This document shows positions 4,661 through 58,911 of a stretch of 63,817 nt of DNA, in pieces. Below the pieces are notes generated by a model that saw only the letters and a list, made by a program, of their open reading frames with translations, searched no databases and was not told the origin of the DNA. A program made the translations under genes and the position numbers. The stretch's first letter is position 1. Every line of letters begins with the position of its first letter. The stretch covers positions 1-63,817 of the forward strand of contig JAHJSY010000041.1 in assembly GCA_018830125.1 (NCBI GenBank), given 5' to 3'. This DNA comes from Patescibacteria group bacterium. Lineage in GTDB: Bacteria; Patescibacteriota; Minisyncoccia; Minisyncoccales; GWA2-38-27.

Positions 4661-5203
4661 ATGATTCAAGAGATCTTAAAAAATATTGATCGAAAAAGGG
4701 ATCAAGAAATAGAGAAAATCAATCAAGAAAAAGAACAGTCTCTTTTGAGTTTAAAAGAAAAAGCTAAAAAACAAATTGCTTTAAAGAAACAAGAAGCTTT
4801 ATTCGCTTTAAATAAAGAAAAATCAAGAAAGGTATCGGAGTTTTTACAGGAAAAAAATACGGAAATAGATTTTGTTTTTCAGAATGAAAAAAATAAAATC
4901 ATTCAAGAAGTCTGGGATCGAGTTGAAGAAAAAATTAATAAAATGCCTAATGATTCTTTTGAAAAAATAATTGATTTTTTAATCAAGTTTATTCCTACTA
5001 ATATAGAAGGAGAAATTAAGGCTTCTGGAAGAACAGCTAAAATTCTTAAAGGATCTCTTAAGAATTTTGAAATCAAAGACAACTTGAAAGAAGAAGGATT
5101 TTTAGTTAAAACCAAGAATCTTGATTTAGATTTTCGAATCAAGGAGGTCCTGAAAGAGATGAGGGAAAATCTAAATCCTAAAATAATTAAGATCTTATTT
5201 TAA
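4661..5203 (+). CDS. ntpE: V/A-type ATPase subunit E
   Basis: About 180-aa charged helical protein in the E position of the operon. ATG lies 2 nt after the ntpK stop. Confidence 0.6.
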   Translation: MIQEILKNIDRKRDQEIEKINQEKEQSLLSLKEKAKKQIALKKQEALFALNKEKSRKVSEFLQEKNTEIDFVFQNEKNKIIQEVWDRVEEKINKMPNDSFEKIIDFLIKFIPTNIEGEIKASGRTAKILKGSLKNFEIKDNLKEEGFLVKTKNLDLDFRIKEVLKEMRENLNPKIIKILF

Positions 5204-9476: not shown

Positions 9477-10074
9477 AATAGAATTAATCAAATTGAAGAT
9501 AAGATTAAAGACCTCCCAAAGAGGACATAAACTCTTAAAAGAAAAGAGAGATGGCTTGATGAAAAAGTTTATGGAAATTATTAAGGAAGCTAAGGTCAAA
9601 AGAATTGAAATGGAAGAAAAGCTTTCTAATTCTGGAAAGGACTTTGCTATTATTTCGTCTCCCTTTTCTCCTAAAGAAGTGGAGCAGTTTTTTCTTTTAC
9701 CTTCAATGAAAGCTGAAGTTTCAATGGAAGAAAAAAACATTATGGGAGTAAAGATTCCTGTGTTTTCTTGCCAGACCTACAAGATAGAGCCTGATGAAAA
9801 AAGTTATTCTTATTTCTCTTTCCCAATTGGAATGGAAAAAAGTATTAAAGAGTTTGAAAATACTTTTTCTCTGATGTTAGAATTAGCCAATATTGAACAT
9901 TCGGCTCGTCTTTTATCTTTTGAAATAGAGAAGACCAGACGAAGAGTCAATGCTTTAGAATATATTATTATTCCTCAAATAATTCAAAACATTAAATTAA
10001 TTCGTTCAAAACTAGACGAAAATGAAAGGGCCGAAAAAATAATCCGTTTAATCATAAAATCCCAAATCGCTTAA
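9454..10074 (+). CDS. ntpD: V/A-type ATPase central-stalk subunit D
   Basis: N-terminus [31 protein letters not shown] is the D-subunit signature. Overlaps ntpB. Confidence 0.9.
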
Positions 10075-10085
10075 ATAAAGCAATC

Positions 10086-10111
10086 AAAAAACACCTCAAA
10101 GGTGTTTTTTT
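10086..10111 (+). terminator. Rho-independent terminator of the ATPase operon
   Basis: AAAAAACACCTCAAAGGTGTTTTTTT: short GC stem flanked by A and T runs. Confidence 0.7.
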
Positions 10112-10120
10112 GAGAAAGTT

Positions 10121-10151
10121 GAGAAAGGGAGAAAGGGGACGCATCACTTTT
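10121..10151. repeat. GGGGACGCATCACTTTT repeat (AAAAGTGA family)
   Basis: GAGAAAGGGAGAAAGGGGACGCATCACTTTT. Its reverse complement closely matches 49618..49658. A related copy lies at 11392..11416. Confidence 0.7.
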
Positions 10152-10176
10152 AGTCAGAGCTTTAAGCGTTTTTTAT

Positions 10177-11307
10177 TTAATCTCCTAGAATAAATGGATC
10201 TAATTCTTTTTTGGTGATCACTTGGAAAGAACTCAACCAATCAAAATTTTGTTTTTTTATAGCTTTTCGCGGATTCCATTTAAACTCATAACCGTTTAAT
10301 TGGTTTGATTCTTCCTCAATAAGATCTATTTCGTTGCCGTCATAAGTGCGCCAAAAATACTGCTCTGCATCAATTTTATTATAAAAACGGAACTTCATTC
10401 TTTCGGTAATCATAAAGTTCTCCCATAAGGATCCGACATCTTTTCTGCTGTCTAAAAAATTAAAATTATTAATTACTGCATTTCTAATACCAACATCGTA
10501 AAAATATATTTTTCTTAATTTAGAAATTTCTCTTCTTTTATTCTTAGTAAATGGTTTTAATCTAAAAATAACGAAATTCTTTTCCAACAACTGAATATAT
10601 CGCTCAACAGTTTTTTTATCAATATCAACAGTGTTTGATAATTCGTTATAAGATACTTCTGATCCTATTTGAAGAGCCAACGCTTTGAGCAATTTTACTA
10701 AAATGTCTGGACTCTTAACATCTTGAAATCCTAAAATATCTTTATAAATATAACTTGAAGCTAATTCTTGAAGTAATTCTTTTTTTTCTTCAAACGATGA
10801 CTGAGAAACAACTTCTGGATAAGAACCGAAAATCATTAGACTCTCTAGCTCTTTGATAATTTTTAAATAATTTTTGTCGGGATAAATTTCTTGCAAGCTT
10901 AAAGGAGAAAGTTGATAGACATATTTTCTCCCCGTTAAGGGTTCTTGAGTATTATCCAATAAATTTAAACTGGATGAACCTGTAACTATAATTTGTTTTT
11001 TCTTTTTATAAAAATCAACCAATAACTTTAATGTTTCTCCAATATTTTCTACTTTTTGAGCCTCATCAATAAAAACCAGCTTGGCTTTGCCAATCAATTG
11101 TTTTAAAAATTCTAAATCTTTATCAGCTAACTGTTCTCTATCGCTTGGATTATCGCAGTTAAATAAACGGATATCCTTTTTAGGGAATTCTTTTGTTAAT
11201 TCTAAACTAAGAGTAGTTTTGCCCGTTTGTCTTGCACCAACAATAATTATTATTTTTCCTTTAAAGAATTTCTTTGATATTGTTTCTTCTAATATTCTTT
11301 TATACAT
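10177..11307 (-). CDS. AAA-family ATPase with DUF4143-like C-terminal domain
   Basis: Walker A GARQTGKTT, Walker B LVFIDEAQ. 376 aa, architecture of COG1373-type ATPases. Confidence 0.75.
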   Translation of the reverse strand: MYKRILEETISKKFFKGKIIIIVGARQTGKTTLSLELTKEFPKKDIRLFNCDNPSDREQLADKDLEFLKQLIGKAKLVFIDEAQKVENIGETLKLLVDFYKKKKQIIVTGSSSLNLLDNTQEPLTGRKYVYQLSPLSLQEIYPDKNYLKIIKELESLMIFGSYPEVVSQSSFEEKKELLQELASSYIYKDILGFQDVKSPDILVKLLKALALQIGSEVSYNELSNTVDIDKKTVERYIQLLEKNFVIFRLKPFTKNKRREISKLRKIYFYDVGIRNAVINNFNFLDSRKDVGSLWENFMITERMKFRFYNKIDAEQYFWRTYDGNEIDLIEEESNQLNGYEFKWNPRKAIKKQNFDWLSSFQVITKKELDPFILGD

Positions 11308-11391
11308 GCTCTTTGTGATTTAGTGATTACACTCTCTATTTTACGCCTGTATTTTAGCCTGTCAATACTAGTTATCCACAGCCAAAATTAT

Positions 11392-11416
11392 AAAAGTCAC
11401 AGGGGGCGTCACTTTT
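11392..11416. repeat. AAAAGTCAC-AGGGGGC-GTCACTTTT repeat
   Basis: Shares GGGG.CG..TCACTTTTA with 10135..10152 in the same orientation. The two copies flank the AAA ATPase gene. Confidence 0.6.
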
Positions 11417-11430
11417 AAACAGGGTTTTGG

Positions 11431-12237
11431 TCATGCTTGGCATTTAGGGCAGAAGCAAGTGCTTCGGGCGTTGATTTTTTTTCTTTGAATTTTGGTTTTG
11501 CAACGATAGCATTGTTCTCCTTCTCTGCGGTAAGCTTTTATTACTTTCCCAAAGGTTCCCTTTTCTCCTTTTATATTTCTGTAATCAGAAGTACTTGTTC
11601 CTCCCATCTTAAGTGCTTTTCTTAAAGTCTTCTTGATTGATTGATAAATATCTTTTAGCTGTTTCTCGGTTAGCTTTGAAACATCTTTAAAGGGATGGAT
11701 TTTAGTTTCCCATAATATTTCGTCTGCATAGATATTGCCTATTCCAACAATAACTTCTTGCTTCATTAAAACCTGCTTAATTTTTCCTCTCTTATTTTTT
11801 AGAGCCTCTTTGAATTTATTAAAGGTAAAACCTTTTTCTAATGGTTCTGGTCCCAAAGAATCTAGTTCTTTGATTAGGTCTTTAGTTTTTAGGAGTTTAA
11901 CTTTAGCAAATTTCCGAAGATCGGAAAAAGCCAACACTCTTCCGTTATCTAAAAAGAATTTTAGATGTATGTAGCTATTATATTTATCTTCTTTGTTCCA
12001 ATTATCATATAAAAAATGGCCAGTCATTTTTTGATGAACTAAAAGAGAGTAATCTTCGGAAATGTCAAAGATAATATTTTTACCTCTCCGCCAGATCTTT
12101 TTAATCTTTTTATTCTTTAGTTCTTTTTTAAGTTTAGTAAATTTCTGAATATCAGTCCAAACGTCAACAAAGGTCCTATCAATAAGGACCTTTTGCAAAC
12201 CTCTAACTGTTGTCTCTACTTCTGGTAGTTCTGGCAT
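11431..12237 (-). CDS. mutM: formamidopyrimidine-DNA glycosylase
   Basis: N-terminal MPELPEVET and C-terminal zinc finger CYRC..CFCPKCQ. Confidence 0.9.
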   Translation of the reverse strand: MPELPEVETTVRGLQKVLIDRTFVDVWTDIQKFTKLKKELKNKKIKKIWRRGKNIIFDISEDYSLLVHQKMTGHFLYDNWNKEDKYNSYIHLKFFLDNGRVLAFSDLRKFAKVKLLKTKDLIKELDSLGPEPLEKGFTFNKFKEALKNKRGKIKQVLMKQEVIVGIGNIYADEILWETKIHPFKDVSKLTEKQLKDIYQSIKKTLRKALKMGGTSTSDYRNIKGEKGTFGKVIKAYRREGEQCYRCKTKIQRKKINARSTCFCPKCQA

Positions 12238-18391: not shown

Positions 18392-19344
18392 AAAAGGTAA
18401 TTCTAATTTTGTTGTTTTTTCCTGTTTTTGTTTTGAGTCAAGAAAAAATCAATATTAATACAGCCACATTAGAACAGTTAGATATATTAATAGGAATTGG
18501 ACCAACCTATGCACAAAGAATAATAGATAATAGACCTTTTTCTTCAGTTGATGATTTACTGAGAGTAAACGGTATCGGAGAAAAAACTTTAGAGAAAATA
18601 AAAGAACAGAAACTTGCTTATGTAGAAGAAAAACCCGTAGAAACCACCCCAATGCCAACAATAGAACCAATGAAGGAGGTTAAACCTCCTCCATACGTTG
18701 ACGTTGAAAAAATAGAGATTAGGGTCGAGGACGGGCCTCGAACTTTTCCAAGTGGGATTATTATCAATGAAATACTACCTTCGCCTGAAGGATCCGATTC
18801 TGAAAATGAATGGATTGAGCTATATAATCAAAATGATTTTGACATTGATTTAAATAATTGGACAATTAAAGACACTACCGGAAGTATTAAAGAATATATT
18901 TTAGAAACTAAAATTCCTCGTTTAGGATACTTACTTTTAAAAAGACCTGAAACAAAAATAACCCTGAACAATGACAGCGATGGTTTAATTTTAATGAATC
19001 CGAATAAAGAAATTGTAGACTCAGTAAATTTTGGAAAGGCATTGCAAGGACAGTCATATAACAGATATTCTTCTGAATGGTCTTGGACAATAACGCCAAC
19101 TCCAGAAGAACAAAATGTTATAGTAAAAAAATCGACTCCACAACCAAAACAAGCCAATCTCACTGGAAGTAAAAATCAAGAATCTGCGGAGGTCGGACCT
19201 CCGCAGATTCTTAGAAATAAACTGGTGAACAGTTTTGAGGATTTTCCTGGGATTTCCGTATTTTTAATTGGTTTTATTGTCGCCATATTTTGTTCAATTG
19301 CTTTCCTAATAATAAAAAGCAATATCAGGGGCTTTTGGTATTAA
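18388..19344 (+). CDS. ComEA-like helix-hairpin-helix protein fused to a lamin-tail domain, C-terminal TM anchor
   Basis: Signal sequence, then INTATLEQLDILIGIGPTYAQRII and VNGIGEKTLEKI (HhH). IINEILPSPEGSDSENEWIELYN (LTD). Hydrophobic C-terminus. Confidence 0.7.
   Translation: MKKVILILLFFPVFVLSQEKININTATLEQLDILIGIGPTYAQRIIDNRPFSSVDDLLRVNGIGEKTLEKIKEQKLAYVEEKPVETTPMPTIEPMKEVKPPPYVDVEKIEIRVEDGPRTFPSGIIINEILPSPEGSDSENEWIELYNQNDFDIDLNNWTIKDTTGSIKEYILETKIPRLGYLLLKRPETKITLNNDSDGLILMNPNKEIVDSVNFGKALQGQSYNRYSSEWSWTITPTPEEQNVIVKKSTPQPKQANLTGSKNQESAEVGPPQILRNKLVNSFEDFPGISVFLIGFIVAIFCSIAFLIIKSNIRGFWY
18725..18747. repeat. REP-like core (reverse orientation) inside the ComEA/LTD ORF
   Basis: TCGAGGACGGGCCTCGAACTTTT, read in frame as VEDGPRTF. 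Confidence 0.8.
19180..19210. repeat. 31-nt palindrome GAATCTGCGGAGGTC-G-GACCTCCGCAGATTC inside the ComEA/LTD ORF
   Basis: 15-nt arms are perfectly complementary. Read as QESAEVGPPQIL. The GAGGTCGGACCTC core is related to 47975, 48004 and 49541. Confidence 0.85.
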
Positions 19345-43963: not shown

Positions 43964-44034
43964 GGGCGGGTAGTGAAACGGCATCACAAGTAACTTATAC
44001 CTATTTATTGTGGGTTCGAATCCCATCCCGTCCA
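43964..44034 (+). tRNA. tRNA, probable anticodon TAT (Ile)
   Basis: Hand-folded. Acceptor GGGCGGG/CCCGTCC, D arm GTGA-AACGGCA-TCAC. Anticodon arm AGTAA-CTTATAC-CTATT has one A-C mismatch. T arm GTGGG-TTCGAAT-CCCAT. No encoded CCA. Confidence 0.6.
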
Positions 44035-44058
44035 CACTCACCTTTGACTTTTGCACTA

Positions 44059-44229: not shown

Positions 44230-45009
44230 TTAGAGTCCGCCTTTTTTTGTTAATTTTAGCCAGTCTTCCACAGATAGAGTTTCGGCGCGTTGAGTCGGCT
44301 TAATCCCCTTGCTTAAAAGCAAGGAGCTAAGTTCTTCTTTATTTATCTCTAATTCTTTTGATAAATTATTAATAAGTTGTTTTCTTGGTTGAGAGAATCC
44401 AGCTTTGACAATTTTAAAAAACTTATCGGGATTGATGTCGTGTTTCTTCTTGGGGGTTATTTGAATAATAGCGCTATCAACTTTTGGAACGGGCTTGAAA
44501 GATCTTTTAGATATATATGAAAGAACTTTGGCGGTTGCGTAAAACTGGACAGAAACAGCTAGGATGCTCATTCTGGGCGGTTTGGCACATATTCTTTGAG
44601 CAACCTCTTTTTGAACTATTAGAGTCATTTCTTTTGGAGATCCGCCAGCTGGCGGATTCTCCAAGAACTTTCTAATAACGGGTGCTACTATATAGAAAGG
44701 CAAGTTGGCAACGACTTTGGAAATTGGAAATTGGAAATTAGATATTTTTAAAATATCTTCGTAGATTATTTTTATGTTGTCAAAATCTTTTAATTCTTCT
44801 TTGAGAAAATCAACGAGGCGTTGGTCTTTTTCCACAGCAATAACCTTTTTAACTCTTTTAACTAATTCTTTCGTCAAGGCCCCTTTGCCTGGTCCAATCT
44901 CTAAGACACTATCTGTCTTAAGGAGCTTAGCTCCATTAATAACATTAGAGATAACCCTTTTGTTAATTAAGAAATTTTGGCCGAAATGTTTTATTGGTTT
45001 TATTTGCAT
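44230..45009 (-). CDS. rsmA: 16S rRNA (adenine1518/1519-N6)-dimethyltransferase
   Basis: HFGQNFL, VLEIGPGKGALT, NLPFYI motifs. Contains the in-frame PPAGG palindrome. Confidence 0.9.
   Translation of the reverse strand: MQIKPIKHFGQNFLINKRVISNVINGAKLLKTDSVLEIGPGKGALTKELVKRVKKVIAVEKDQRLVDFLKEELKDFDNIKIIYEDILKISNFQFPISKVVANLPFYIVAPVIRKFLENPPAGGSPKEMTLIVQKEVAQRICAKPPRMSILAVSVQFYATAKVLSYISKRSFKPVPKVDSAIIQITPKKKHDINPDKFFKIVKAGFSQPRKQLINNLSKELEINKEELSSLLLSKGIKPTQRAETLSVEDWLKLTKKGGL
44641..44658. repeat. palindrome TCCGCCAGCTGGCGGA(TT) inside rsmA
   Basis: Read on the minus strand as AATCCGCCAGCTGGCGGA = NPPAGG. The identical 18-mer lies in cca at 57568..57585. Confidence 0.9.
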
Positions 45010-45026
45010 TATTTAATAATAACAGA

Positions 45027-45072
45027 TAAAAGTGACCGAGTCACTTTTCGCTAAAAGTGACTCGGTCACTTT
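45027..45072. repeat. two tandem palindromes AAAAGTGAC(C/T)(G/C)(A/G)GTCACTTT
   Basis: 45027..45047 and 45054..45072, between divergent rsmA and the M23 peptidase gene. Same element as 33664. Confidence 0.85.
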
Positions 45073-46708: not shown

Positions 46709-46781
46709 GCCCCTATAACTCAATTGGTAGAGTAACGGCCTCTTAAGCCGGTTGTTCCAGGTTCAAGTCCTGGTGGGGGCA
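46709..46781 (+). tRNA. tRNA-Lys (anticodon CTT)
   Basis: Hand-folded cloverleaf. Acceptor GCCCCTA/TGGGGGC, anticodon loop CTCTTAA, T arm CCAGG-TTCAAGT-CCTGG. No encoded CCA. Confidence 0.9.
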
Positions 46782-46816
46782 CAAATAAAAAAAATATTGA
46801 GGTTGAACCTCAATAG

Positions 46817-49361: not shown

Positions 49362-49417
49362 TGAAAGAGGGAAGCAAAGCTTGGGCGAGTAAAGCTTAGC
49401 TTTAAACATCTCGCTAG

Positions 49418-49482
49418 CTCAATTGGTAGAGTAACGGCCTCTTAAGCCGGTTGTTCCAGGTTCAAGTCCTGGTGGGGGCACA
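49418..49482 (+). repeat. duplicated 3' part of tRNA-Lys (no 5' acceptor strand)
   Basis: Identical to 46719..46783. The upstream ATCTCGC cannot pair with TGGGGGC, so this is not a functional tRNA. Confidence 0.85.
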
Positions 49483-53478: not shown

Positions 53479-53512
53479 AAAACTGCCCGAGGCCCGTCCT
53501 CGGGCAGTTTTT
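53479..53512 (+). terminator. pnp terminator built on the REP-like core
   Basis: AAAACTGCCCGAGG-CCCGT-CCTCGGGCAGTTTT, followed by T. Confidence 0.8.
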
Positions 53513-53838: not shown

Positions 53839-54258
53839 ATGCTTTTTGTTTTAGACACGAATGTTATTGTTTCGGCTTTGTTCTGGGGTGGCAATCCAAG
53901 AGAAGTTTTAGAGAAGATATATCTAAAGCATACAATTTGCTTTAGCGAAGAAACATTGAATGAGTTAAAAGAAGTTCTGAAATATCCACAATTTAGCTCT
54001 CATATAGAAAATTTAAGTTTTTCCATAGAGGAATTTATTAATACTCTAACCAAAAAAGCATACATAATTTCTAATCCGCCAGAATTATCAATTATCAAAG
54101 AAGATAAATCTGACAACAAATTTTTAGCTTGTGCATTGGCCTGCCAAGCATTTTTTATTATATCTGGTGACAAGCACTTAATTAAGGTAAAGAAGTTTAA
54201 AAATATTTCCATAATAACGCCTCAAGAATTTTTGAAAAAGAAAGATAACATATTATAA
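53839..54258 (+). CDS. PIN-domain toxin (VapC-like)
   Basis: FVLDTNVIVSAL start with acidic residues at E.., D.., and ISGDKHL, typical of PIN_3-type proteins. Confidence 0.75.
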   Translation: MLFVLDTNVIVSALFWGGNPREVLEKIYLKHTICFSEETLNELKEVLKYPQFSSHIENLSFSIEEFINTLTKKAYIISNPPELSIIKEDKSDNKFLACALACQAFFIISGDKHLIKVKKFKNISIITPQEFLKKKDNIL

Positions 54259-57456: not shown

Positions 57457-58911
57457 ATGAAGATAATGGATATACCCAAAAAAATAGAAGGTATTTTAAA
57501 GAAGCTGGAGAAAAATGGATATAAGGCCTATCTTGTAGGAGGCTGTGTTCGTGATCTATTAATGGGTAATCCGCCAGCTGGCGGACCGAAGGATTGGGAT
57601 ATAACAACAGATGCTTCTCCAGAAGAGACTCAAAAGATTTTCCCCGATAATTTTATGAACAATAAATTTGGCACAGTAACTGTTTTGGGTAGTGTTGAAA
57701 TTACTCCTTTTAGAACAGAGACCAAATATACAGACAAGAGACATCCAGATAAAGTTGAATGGGCCAAGACCATTGAAGAAGATCTTTCCAGGCGCGATTT
57801 CACCATAAACTCAATCGCAATTAAAATTCAGAATTCAGAATTCAAAATTATTGACTTATTTGACGGTAAAGAAGATATCAAAAAAGGAATTGTGAAAGCT
57901 GTGGGAGATGCAAACGAAAGATTTAATGAGGATGCTTTGAGAATGATGAGGGCAGTTAGATTCGCCAGTGTTTTAGATTTTACAATAGATAAAAAAACAG
58001 CTGATGCTATAAAGAAGAATGCACCATGGATGAAAGCTATTTCTAAAGAAAGGATAAGAGATGAATTGTTAAAAATCATTATGTCAGATAATGCTTCTGA
58101 TGGTATAGAAATGTTAAGAGAGCTTGGTTTGCTGAAATATATTATCCCCGAGCTAGAAGATGGCTATAAGGTGGCCCAGTCAAAACATCACACATATGAT
58201 GTTTATAAGCACTCAATACTTTCTCTAAAATATGCCGCTCAAAAGAATTTTAGCAGGGATGTCAGAATCGCTTCCCTCCTTCACGATGTTGGCAAACCAA
58301 AATCTAAAAGAGGGTCTGGTGAAAGTGCTACCTTTTATGGACACGAAGTTGTTGGCGCTAGAATGTCAAAGCAAATATTGGGTCGTTTAAGATTTTCCAA
58401 AAAAGAAATAGAAAAAATTACTAAATTGATTAGATATCATTTGTTTTATTATAATGTTGATGAAGTTACTGAGGCATCGGTTAGAAAGTTAGTTCGTAAA
58501 GTAGGCCCAGAAAGCATAGAAGAATTATTACAAGTAAGAATGGCTGATAGAATTGGTTCGGGTGTTCCTAAGGCGGAACCATACAAACTTCGTCATATGA
58601 AATATATTATTGAGAAAGCTTCCAGAGACCCGGTCTCTGTAAAGATGCTTAAAATAAACGGACAGGATATTATGAGAATATTAGATGTTAAGCCGGATCC
58701 CAAGATAGGGCAAGTTTTAGATATATTGTTGGGTTATGTCTTAATAGATCCTAAAAATAATAAAAAGGCGTATTTAGAAAAAGAAATTAAAAAACTGGGC
58801 AAGCTTTCGGATAGAGAGCTTAGCTCCTTGACTGAAAATTCGCGCAAAGAACGGGAAGAGGTTATAATGAAAGAAGATAAAATGACTAAACAAAAGTACT
58901 GGGTTACATGA
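57457..58911 (+). CDS. cca: CCA-adding tRNA nucleotidyltransferase with HD domain
   Basis: GGCVRDLLMG..DWDITT head-domain motif, interrupted by the NPPAGG palindrome. RDFTINS. HD region HHTYDVYKHS..LLHDVGK. ATG 57466 is an alternative start. Confidence 0.85.
   Translation: MKIMDIPKKIEGILKKLEKNGYKAYLVGGCVRDLLMGNPPAGGPKDWDITTDASPEETQKIFPDNFMNNKFGTVTVLGSVEITPFRTETKYTDKRHPDKVEWAKTIEEDLSRRDFTINSIAIKIQNSEFKIIDLFDGKEDIKKGIVKAVGDANERFNEDALRMMRAVRFASVLDFTIDKKTADAIKKNAPWMKAISKERIRDELLKIIMSDNASDGIEMLRELGLLKYIIPELEDGYKVAQSKHHTYDVYKHSILSLKYAAQKNFSRDVRIASLLHDVGKPKSKRGSGESATFYGHEVVGARMSKQILGRLRFSKKEIEKITKLIRYHLFYYNVDEVTEASVRKLVRKVGPESIEELLQVRMADRIGSGVPKAEPYKLRHMKYIIEKASRDPVSVKMLKINGQDIMRILDVKPDPKIGQVLDILLGYVLIDPKNNKKAYLEKEIKKLGKLSDRELSSLTENSRKEREEVIMKEDKMTKQKYWVT
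57568..57585. repeat. palindrome AATCCGCCAGCTGGCGGA inside cca
   Basis: Read as NPPAGG between the conserved GGxVRDxLLG and DxD parts of the motif. Confidence 0.9.

Follow-up and report, generated by a model that had tools for sequence, protein, structure and literature searches.

A 16-nt palindromic repeat in frame in rsmA and cca of a Patescibacteria genome and dispersed among AT-rich bacteria

We have found that two essential genes of a Patescibacteria genome carry, in frame, the same perfect 16-nt palindrome, TCCGCCAGCTGGCGGA, which is apparently a widespread but undescribed miniature palindromic repeat. The preliminary description of this DNA had argued for a mobile palindrome that coding sequence tolerates. 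The 16-mer recurs in several phyla, in hundreds of contexts that have nothing else in common, which strongly supports this idea; its movement, and the mechanism, are inferred. We consider it probable that a miniature hairpin repeat has been copied to new sites, selection having kept those copies that are tolerated.

Two copies in essential genes of one genome

The window, that is, the whole stretch of 63,817 nt analysed here (contig JAHJSY010000041.1 of assembly GCA_018830125.1), has a GC content of 34%. Judged by the names of its protein homologues, the organism belongs to Candidatus Nealsonbacteria (Patescibacteria). The 18-mer AATCCGCCAGCTGGCGGA, which is the palindrome with two flanking bases, has exactly two matches in the window, both exact, where 0 are expected by chance, and 0 of 100 dinucleotide-preserving shuffles of the window yielded any match. 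In the sense frame both copies encode NPPAGG, so the identical 18-nt stretch first noticed in rsmA and cca is confirmed; a chance origin is ruled out by the shuffles together with the collection scans described below. The features are as follows.

44230..45009, minus strand: rsmA, 16S rRNA dimethyladenosine transferase, host of copy 1 (Pfam RrnaAD, E = 7e-55)
44629..44667, minus strand: extended hairpin around copy 1 (RNA fold -22.2 kcal/mol, z = -4.9)
44641..44656, symmetric: copy 1, perfect palindrome TCCGCCAGCTGGCGGA (16 nt), inside rsmA
44641-44658, minus strand: copy 1 as 18-mer (palindrome plus sense-strand flanking AA), NPPAGG at RsmA residues 118-123
57457..58911, plus strand: cca, CCA-adding tRNA nucleotidyltransferase with HD domain, host of copy 2 (Pfam)
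57568-57585, plus strand: copy 2 as 18-mer (palindrome plus flanking AA), NPPAGG at CCA residues 38-43
57570..57585, symmetric: copy 2, perfect palindrome TCCGCCAGCTGGCGGA (16 nt), inside cca

The product of cca has the Pfam PolyA_pol head, RNA-binding and HD domains. Apart from the two copies, at 44641-44656 and 57570-57585, the window has no GC-rich perfect palindrome of this size; a lone half-site, AATCCGCCAG, lies at 54073-54082. An independent assembly, Logan SRR6514730, encodes both insert-bearing proteins exactly, and another, JGI 3300014656, encodes the insert-bearing RsmA exactly. The extended hairpin of copy 1 comprises about 15 bp and one bulge, since TTGGAG (Leu-Glu) and CTCCAA (Ser/Pro-Pro-Lys), native codons on either side of the palindrome, can pair; the cca copy lacks such an extension (z = -1.5). 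It had been claimed that the sequence is its own reverse complement and gives the same peptide in either orientation. This is true of the 16-mer and of PPAGG but not of the 18-mer and its Asn, which is supplied by an AA next to the palindrome that lies on the sense strand of both genes; hence only PPAGG is orientation-independent.

Alignment of orthologues agrees with the proposal that the stretches are insertions. The usual sequence at the RsmA site is FLE-x-K-NPP-KEM; about 114 of the best 120 homologues are without the insert, and a PPAGG-like stretch is found in only 6. At the CCA site, 118 of the best 120 homologues read LLxx-(V/I)E-PKDWD, and NPPAGG is found among them only in the window and in homologue P0127. 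In 122 of 128 diverse CCA representatives (taken as 50% identity clusters), 8 residues separate GGxVRD from DxD, against 12 in the window, where the insert sits between GGCVRD (residues 28-33) and DWD (residues 46-48), splitting the head-domain motif as first described. Mapping on structures shows a 4-residue gap at the insert in the alignments with the CCA structures 6ibp and 1miv, and likewise at the RsmA insert with B. subtilis KsgA (6ifw). AlphaFold (AF2) models place the RsmA insert in the loop from helix 105-117 to strand 127-133 (mean pLDDT 93.7) and the CCA insert in the loop from helix 29-35 (GGCVRDLL) to strand 47-51, which bears the catalytic DxD; the local pLDDT at the CCA insert drops to about 78. 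Both inserts are therefore predicted to fall in surface loops of essential enzymes.

The closest relative (L177/L179) is syntenic, with 88-93% nucleotide identity over about 30 kb, and has neither copy. At the cca site it reads GAC ATT GAA CCG, against GGT AAT CCG CCA GCT GGC GGA CCG in the window, a net gain in the window of 12 nt (a surplus of CCGCCAGCTGGC in blastn). At the rsmA site the relative reads ATA GAG AAT CCT CCA AAA and the net gain in the window is 9 nt. Apart from these two copies, the window genome and L177/L179 do not differ by any GC-rich palindromic indel, and the comparison indicates that both are derived insertions. A near-identical (>95%) empty allele, which would define the exact sequence before insertion, was not found.

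The repeat unit, its distribution and its contexts

The 16-mer TCCGCCAGCTGGCGGA folds into a GC stem of 6 bp capped by a loop of 4 nt and as an RNA hairpin has an energy of -10.2 kcal/mol. In the fetched loci, CCAGCTGG falls within the exact 16-mer in 138 of 145 occurrences, the flanks being unrelated. Seven of the eight single-mismatch variants alter the central four bases, and identical arms were found around the loops GGCT, AACT, AGCC, GACT and AGTT as well as around 3-nt loops. Since the arms are constant while the loops vary, the repeat unit is the 6-bp stem TCCGCC/GGCGGA with a small loop, most commonly AGCT.

The usual flanks are a purine 5' and a pyrimidine 3', and the commonest flanking dinucleotide is AA. 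The base 5' of the stem in non-coding copies is A in 46%, G in 31%, C in 14% and T in 9%. AA occurs in these copies at about 25% on each side, independently; the core is therefore symmetric, and the asymmetric 18-mer is ruled out as the unit. Of 56 coding copies, 31 have AA (Asn) immediately 5' of the element on the sense strand, and there is an orientation bias within genes (33:2 and 35:9) which intergenic copies do not show. The Asn codon and the sense orientation, being confined to coding copies, are best explained by selection at the level of the peptide: selection favouring N-PPAGG-(Q/S/P/K) over PPAGG-(F/L) would produce this bias.

A scan of one genome per species with the 18-mer gave at least 119 stretches with a match. 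By an arithmetic estimate, fewer than one occurrence of an 18-mer containing 12 G/C would be expected across the AT-rich genomes of the collection. Among the 80 matches listed, 47 are in Patescibacteria of many classes and 16 in Bacteroidota, the latter including the isolates Aquiflexum lacus and Pedobacter psychrophilus; other carriers among them belong to Bdellovibrionales, AT-rich Gammaproteobacteria, Elusimicrobia and Cloacimonas. A metagenome scan with the 16-mer, on contigs with loosely AT-filtered flanks, gave at least 120 stretches (median GC 39%), and over both scans the median GC of the carrier loci is about 39-40%. The density of non-seed copies in the fetched loci is about 1 per 44-87 kb, that of the window is 2 per 64 kb, and the overall figure for many AT-rich genomes is roughly 1 per 30-90 kb. 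The 55 matches in IMG/VR viral contigs are mostly in GC-rich phages, where the 16-mer is ordinary sequence coding for IRQLAD by chance, with a few in AT-rich phages; a phage origin was rejected on these grounds.

ORFs of at least 150 aa hold about 40% of copies, yet they cover 77-78% of the loci concerned, and coding sequence is roughly five-fold depleted in copies. In the unbiased set of coding copies the frames are PPAGG in 26, RQLA in 14 and SASWR in 11. Besides rsmA and cca, the element is found in frame in about 20 other housekeeping families. The tRNA-related hosts include CysRS, GluRS (twice), LeuRS, an Ile/Val-type synthetase, TsaD, MiaA and TGT; the others include PNPase, RecJ, TatD, SMC, FtsK, a VirD4-like ATPase, cysteine desulfurase, FemAB and glycosyltransferases. 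The homologues available without the element show a gap that is mostly of 4 residues, and also of 3, 5, 7 or more.

RNA genes are hosts as well. One copy (L115) is in the loop of RNase P RNA helix P3, whose arms are UCCGCC/GGCGGG; another (L100) is in a tandem array of four partial copies of a tRNA-Met gene, all from its 3' half; a third (L067) lies within a 23S rRNA match. Some intergenic copies top longer AT-rich inverted repeats. Targeting of hairpin tips was rejected as a rule, complementary flanks being found in a minority and the overall folding energy not differing from that of flank-swapped controls (p = 0.23).

Repeated gain at the same sites, and decay

The DNA at the rsmA site was compared in six lineages, in which the element ranges from perfect down to 1-5 mismatches.

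Window: TCCGCCAGCTGGCGGA, perfect
L183: AACT replaces AGCT, one central change
L184: GACT replaces AGCT, two central changes
L185: TCCGCCAGCTAGCGGG, stem changes
L181: TCCACCAGCTGGCAGG, stem changes
L186: CCCGCCAAGTGGGGGA, heavily decayed

Across these lineages the site has gained a net 9 or 12 nt, and each carrier has as its nearest protein neighbour a sequence without the insert. A neighbour-joining tree with Fitch parsimony requires at least five changes for RsmA and at least two for CCA, with an insert-free root. Another Patescibacteria MAG, L117, is a third cca carrier, with the identical 18-mer at the identical codon, which brings the CCA total to at least three changes. All six insert codons are identical between cca genes that are otherwise 72% identical, and the codons flanking the 18-mer in L117 differ at synonymous sites. 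These comparisons show that different lineages have gained the element independently at the identical codon.

Other genes show similar behaviour. One site in a GT4 glycosyltransferase carries the element in two frames, giving NPPAGG in L049 and SASWR in L037. In MiaA, L066 bears the element and L211 bears TCCGCCGGGGCGGG at that place in a different frame, and the rsmA of L301 has the element elsewhere in the gene. No single species was seen to be polymorphic for the presence of a copy, and the evidence for movement thus comes from comparisons at ≤90% identity.

The preliminary description had held that PPAGG at the same positions in orthologues from unrelated genomes would mean conserved protein sequence. 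A few such carriers exist, which on the surface would suggest conservation. Because they are phylogenetically scattered, and either identical at every synonymous position or decaying, with nearest relatives that lack the insert, they point to recurrent insertion and not to a conserved motif.

Origin of the copies and comparison with known elements

Surviving coding copies have a net gain of +12 nt (the modal value), +9 or +15 nt. A plain insertion of 16 nt breaks the frame, so that coding copies would have taken the place of about 4 target bases (or of 1, or 7). We propose that the 18-mers are copies of a miniature, non-autonomous, dispersed hairpin repeat, and that existing copies would be the source of new ones, through a process that acts on DNA and is provided in trans, the candidates being a hairpin-recognising enzyme or a template switch in replication or repair. 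The copying step would swap a few target bases for the 16-mer, giving the net gains of +12, +9 or +15 nt. Purifying selection would then clear all but the tolerated copies, namely those in frame, mostly as (N)PPAGG, and in loops or hairpin tips. In this the element behaves like a very small selfish DNA repeat, one of no demonstrated function for the cell. Its distribution, derived state, recurrence, decay and the filter on tolerated copies are observed, and it is the copying step that we infer.

No machinery of this kind was apparent near the copies. Clustering of ORFs from 229 loci gave no recurrent protein family beyond housekeeping ones (maximum 11 of 229), and small GIY-YIG genes lie within 200 nt of copies at only 4 loci. 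A tblastn search of ~2.4 Mb of flanking loci and the window, with two Y1 transposase queries, found no such gene beside copies; its sole match lay in a GC-rich viral contig. We found no target-site duplication with a consistent length or boundary, the excess of direct repeats over swapped flanks being diffuse and affecting ≤17% of sites. Among the solitary TCCGCCAG half-sites listed we saw no sign of an insertion sequence with these termini, and the ORF clustering gave no recurrent transposase ORF. The two arms of the element abut, and no intervening segment was seen among those half-sites. A rule that the target resembles an arm was also rejected, as arm-like hexamers are unenriched beside copies (5.4%, against 4.5% at random positions); arm-like empty sites remain anecdotal (rsmA AATCCTCCA, L043 AATCCGGGC, L264 ACCGGC and the RNase P P3 arms).

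Some observations fit less easily with copying of a hairpin repeat. The loss of ~4 target bases is not predicted by known transposition chemistry. Repeated gain at the same codon needs either strong target specificity, for which the flank test was negative, or very few permissive sites. The stem is better kept than the loop, which could mean selection on the hairpin, and identity base for base across phyla is unusual for a selfish repeat.

A more far-reaching possibility, to which we give only tentative weight and which is on the whole unlikely, is that the 16-mer, a minimal hairpin that encodes nothing, is the cis-acting part of an unrecognised kind of mobile DNA, copied between sites and between phyla that share a habitat. 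A widespread hairpin-specific enzyme encoded elsewhere might do the copying; alternatively, and without the need for an enzyme of its own, a nuclease-resistant GC hairpin oligonucleotide scavenged from environmental DNA might be incorporated at replication forks or breaks.

The main rival to copying with selection is that the hairpin is a functional cis-element, either the binding site of a conserved dimeric protein or an uptake-like drive signal, whose spread reflects selection or drive for the site. In the binding-site version the half-sites TCCGCC/GGCGGA would stand around a 4-bp spacer. The conserved stem with its variable central 4 nt and occasional 3-nt loops, the purine/pyrimidine preference of the flanks and the single sequence common to several phyla would all suit such a site. 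The window holds no canonical parS, which counts for this reading, and canonical parS itself was rejected on that ground. Uptake sequences and parS also occur in coding regions, in tolerated frames and across species, and Patescibacteria rely on scavenged DNA. However, the density of 1 per 30-90 kb is roughly 50-fold under the ~1 per kb of uptake sequences, copies at orthologous sites decay freely, stems included, and the closest relative manages without both copies. The approximately five-fold depletion from coding sequence and the lack of any detected positional pattern also count against a functional site, and we regard this reading as rather doubtful. Even if it were correct a copying step would be needed, because an exact 12-nt gain is impossible by point mutation.

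It is quite improbable that nothing was transferred and that each palindrome was made locally, by fold-back or strand-switch synthesis perfecting a half such as AATCCNCCAG. In favour of this, the native rsmA sequence AAT CCT CCA matches the left arm at 8 of 9 bases, arm-like sequence is present at some empty sites (L043, L264 and P3, as above), the codons outside copy 1 differ synonymously from those of relatives in a way that lengthens the hairpin, and the window has its lone half-site at 54073-54082. Against this, the native cca sequence GAC ATT GAA CCG has no half-site, yet the identical 18-mer is found there in three lineages; hundreds of unrelated flanks abut exactly one 16-base sequence, and arm-like sequences show the lack of enrichment given above. 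That NPPAGG is a conserved protein motif, inherited vertically in both enzyme families, is hardly credible despite the few orthologues with PPAGG-like residues at those positions, and is ruled out by the alignments (240 homologues, 150 representatives and PDB chains): it is absent from >95% of close homologues, from all solved structures and from 122 of 128 diverse CCA representatives, its carriers do not group together on the tree, genes otherwise 72% identical share all six codons, and identical DNA is found in RNA genes and between genes. That the sequence is an artefact of sequencing or assembly, for example an adapter/linker junction or a palindromic chimera, can be given practically no weight: carriers are mostly MAGs and some copies are close to contig ends, but in-frame inserts occur at the identical codon across different studies and assemblers, decayed versions exist, and the element is present in two cultured isolates and in long contigs (L058 of 396 kb, L069, L074).

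The 16-mer resembles several known elements, namely the Rickettsia palindromic elements (RPEs), REPs and mitochondrial GC clusters, and belongs to none of them. RPEs are imperfect palindromes about 100-150 bp long, in about ten families, found only in Rickettsia, and are not known to have a transposase of their own. They add a peptide at the protein surface and occur also in RNA genes (see also Ogata et al. 2000). Like RPEs, the 16-mer is in frame in unrelated essential genes, and the window inserts fall in AF2 loops; unlike them, it is a single exact sequence of 16 nt with unrelated flanks and not a repeat of 100-150 bp, and it is found in Patescibacteria, Bacteroidota, Bdellovibrionales and Gammaproteobacteria instead of Rickettsia only. 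In RPEs, too, in-frame palindromic repeats occupy unrelated essential genes of a reduced AT-rich genome (PMC10969869).

REPs are imperfect palindromes of 20-40 nt with a GTAG/CGTC tag, extragenic and lineage-specific, and accompanied by a RAYT gene (PMC3733652). The 16-mer shares with REPs (RAYT, Y1 HUH) the character of a short, GC-rich, non-autonomous stem-loop with a conserved stem, a variable loop and many copies per genome. It has no GTAG/CGTC tag at the foot of the hairpin, and, unlike the extragenic REPs, has about 40% of its copies in ORFs of at least 150 aa and others in rRNA and RNase P RNA. The GC clusters of yeast and fungal mitochondria are GC-rich palindromes of about 30-60 bp, in several degenerate classes, in an AT-rich genome. 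They lie between genes, in genes for rRNA and, on occasion, in frame within a coding gene (var1), and their mobility has been deduced indirectly. The 16-mer is likewise dispersed in AT-rich DNA, in rRNA and coding sequence, by analogy and not homology, but is bacterial, of 16 nt and a single exact sequence.

Uptake sequences (Neisseria DUS, Pasteurellaceae USS) and cyanobacterial HIP1 are family-specific, at about 1 per kb; they arise within existing sequence and not as extra codons, and often form hairpins or terminators when paired. The 16-mer is similarly an exact over-represented oligomer tolerated in coding regions in particular frames, but it occurs at 1 per 30-90 kb, crosses phyla and makes clear insertions. 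MITEs such as Correia elements, QMITE and ERIC are small non-autonomous repeats that can give in-frame fusions and terminator-like hairpins (PMC10969869). Their terminal inverted repeats surround an internal segment (at least about 50 bp), and they have target-site duplications and a parent IS; the 16-mer shows no internal segment and no target duplication of fixed length, and no parent IS was found. A full-text search of the literature gave no report of the 16-mer or 18-mer sequence or of its peptide in this sense, nor any linking palindromic elements or insertions with Patescibacteria genes. Patescibacteria phyla had the highest inverted-repeat density in one survey (PMC13155455).

If copying of a hairpin repeat is correct, no smaller repeat is known to have colonised essential genes for proteins and RNAs, and this one would have done so as one exact sequence across phyla. 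Its copies would provide a natural map of insertion-tolerant loops in proteins such as aminoacyl-tRNA synthetases, TsaD, MiaA, RsmA, CCA, SMC and FtsK, and a marker for DNA exchange between Patescibacteria and their neighbours. They would also offer a tractable route to a new insertion mechanism in almost wholly uncultured organisms, there being two cultured carriers in the Bacteroidota. For annotation, short inserts reading NPPAGG, RQLA or SASWR in MAGs, like unusual hairpins in their rRNA or RNase P RNA, would be real and not errors. A second exact palindrome, CCTGCCTGCCGGCAGGCAGG, has a taxonomic spread like that of the 16-mer, and would be a sister family if the 16-mer is part of unrecognised mobile DNA.

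Copies in rsmA and cca and their surroundings

The locus L183 carries the element, the GC-rich 16-nt palindrome, in both rsmA and cca (184-900 and 10001-11497), in each gene at the site that it occupies in the window. This genome is only ~72% identical to the window yet has both copies, whereas the closest relative (L177/L179), at ~90% identity, has neither.

The Leu-Glu codons directly outside the rsmA copy (window 44632-44637) read TTG GAG. In L177, L181, L183 and L186 they are TTA GAA, in L184 they are CTA GAA and in L185 TTG GAA. The two synonymous changes lengthen the pairing with CTCCAA across the palindrome, and the TTG GAG codons could be a hairpin-templated correction. In comparison with L177, L179 and L181, a large ORF of the window holds a GC-rich insert of 15 nt, CCGTGGAGAAGACGG, at ~38672, and the spacer upstream of rsmA contains a 25-nt duplication (45037-45061).

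Half-site and recognition sequence

One half of the element stands alone in the window:

54073-54082, solitary half-site AATCCGCCAG, inside a small ORF (53839-54258)

It encodes NPPE within this ORF, which looks PIN-like as judged by eye from its sequence, and it could be a chance occurrence, a remnant or a potential target. The element arm, GGCGGA, is the recognition sequence of EciI, a type IIS/IIG restriction enzyme; the whole palindrome would offer two putative EciI sites arranged head to head.

Arrays and a second palindrome at other loci

Elsewhere the element, or hairpins with its arms, are found repeated in non-coding DNA at two loci:

L110, 3690-3785, array of four tandem 22-nt units, GGCGTCCGCCGACTGGCGGATT, with loop variants
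L058 (Prolixibacteraceae, 396-kb contig), 4750-5200, at least six hairpins of the form TCCGCC-N4-GGCGGA, differing in their loops and clustered next to one perfect 16-mer copy

A second exact GC-rich palindrome, CCTGCCTGCCGGCAGGCAGG, was met incidentally, no search having been aimed at it:

L009, 132-151; L014, ~405; L030, ~134: whole
L059, ~7517; L061, ~6656; L071, ~4515: partial

These loci belong to Saccharibacteria, Campbellbacteria, Gottesmanbacteria, Parcubacteria and Bacteroidia. The palindrome may represent a sister family of the 16-mer; in L009 the two are separated by 8 nt.

Other repeats and tRNA genes

The window contains further hairpins and several tRNA genes:

1033-1057, 1562-1586 and 18721-18745, repeated hairpin AAAAGTTCGAGGCCCGTCCTCGAACTTTT
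53487-53508, fourth hairpin, sharing the centre GAGGCCCGTCCTC
43964-44035, tRNA-Ile, anticodon UAU
46709-46782 and 49408-49479, tRNA-Lys(CUU)

Three copies of AAAAGTTCGAGGCCCGTCCTCGAACTTTT compare with 0 expected by chance, and these hairpins, together with the related fourth, look like bidirectional terminators. A tRNA-Ile with a UAU anticodon is uncommon in bacteria. The two tRNA-Lys genes flank a 2.6-kb segment.

At another locus a tRNA gene is itself partly repeated:

L100, 6723-7615, tRNA-Met gene and, after it, a tandem series of four partial copies of the gene's 3' half

Every partial copy has AATCCGCC(A/G)GCTGGCGGAC in place of TAACCCAAAGGTC, the anticodon-loop and variable region of the tRNA-Met, with a small GIY-YIG ORF situated between copies; the whole arrangement looks like stacked integration sites.
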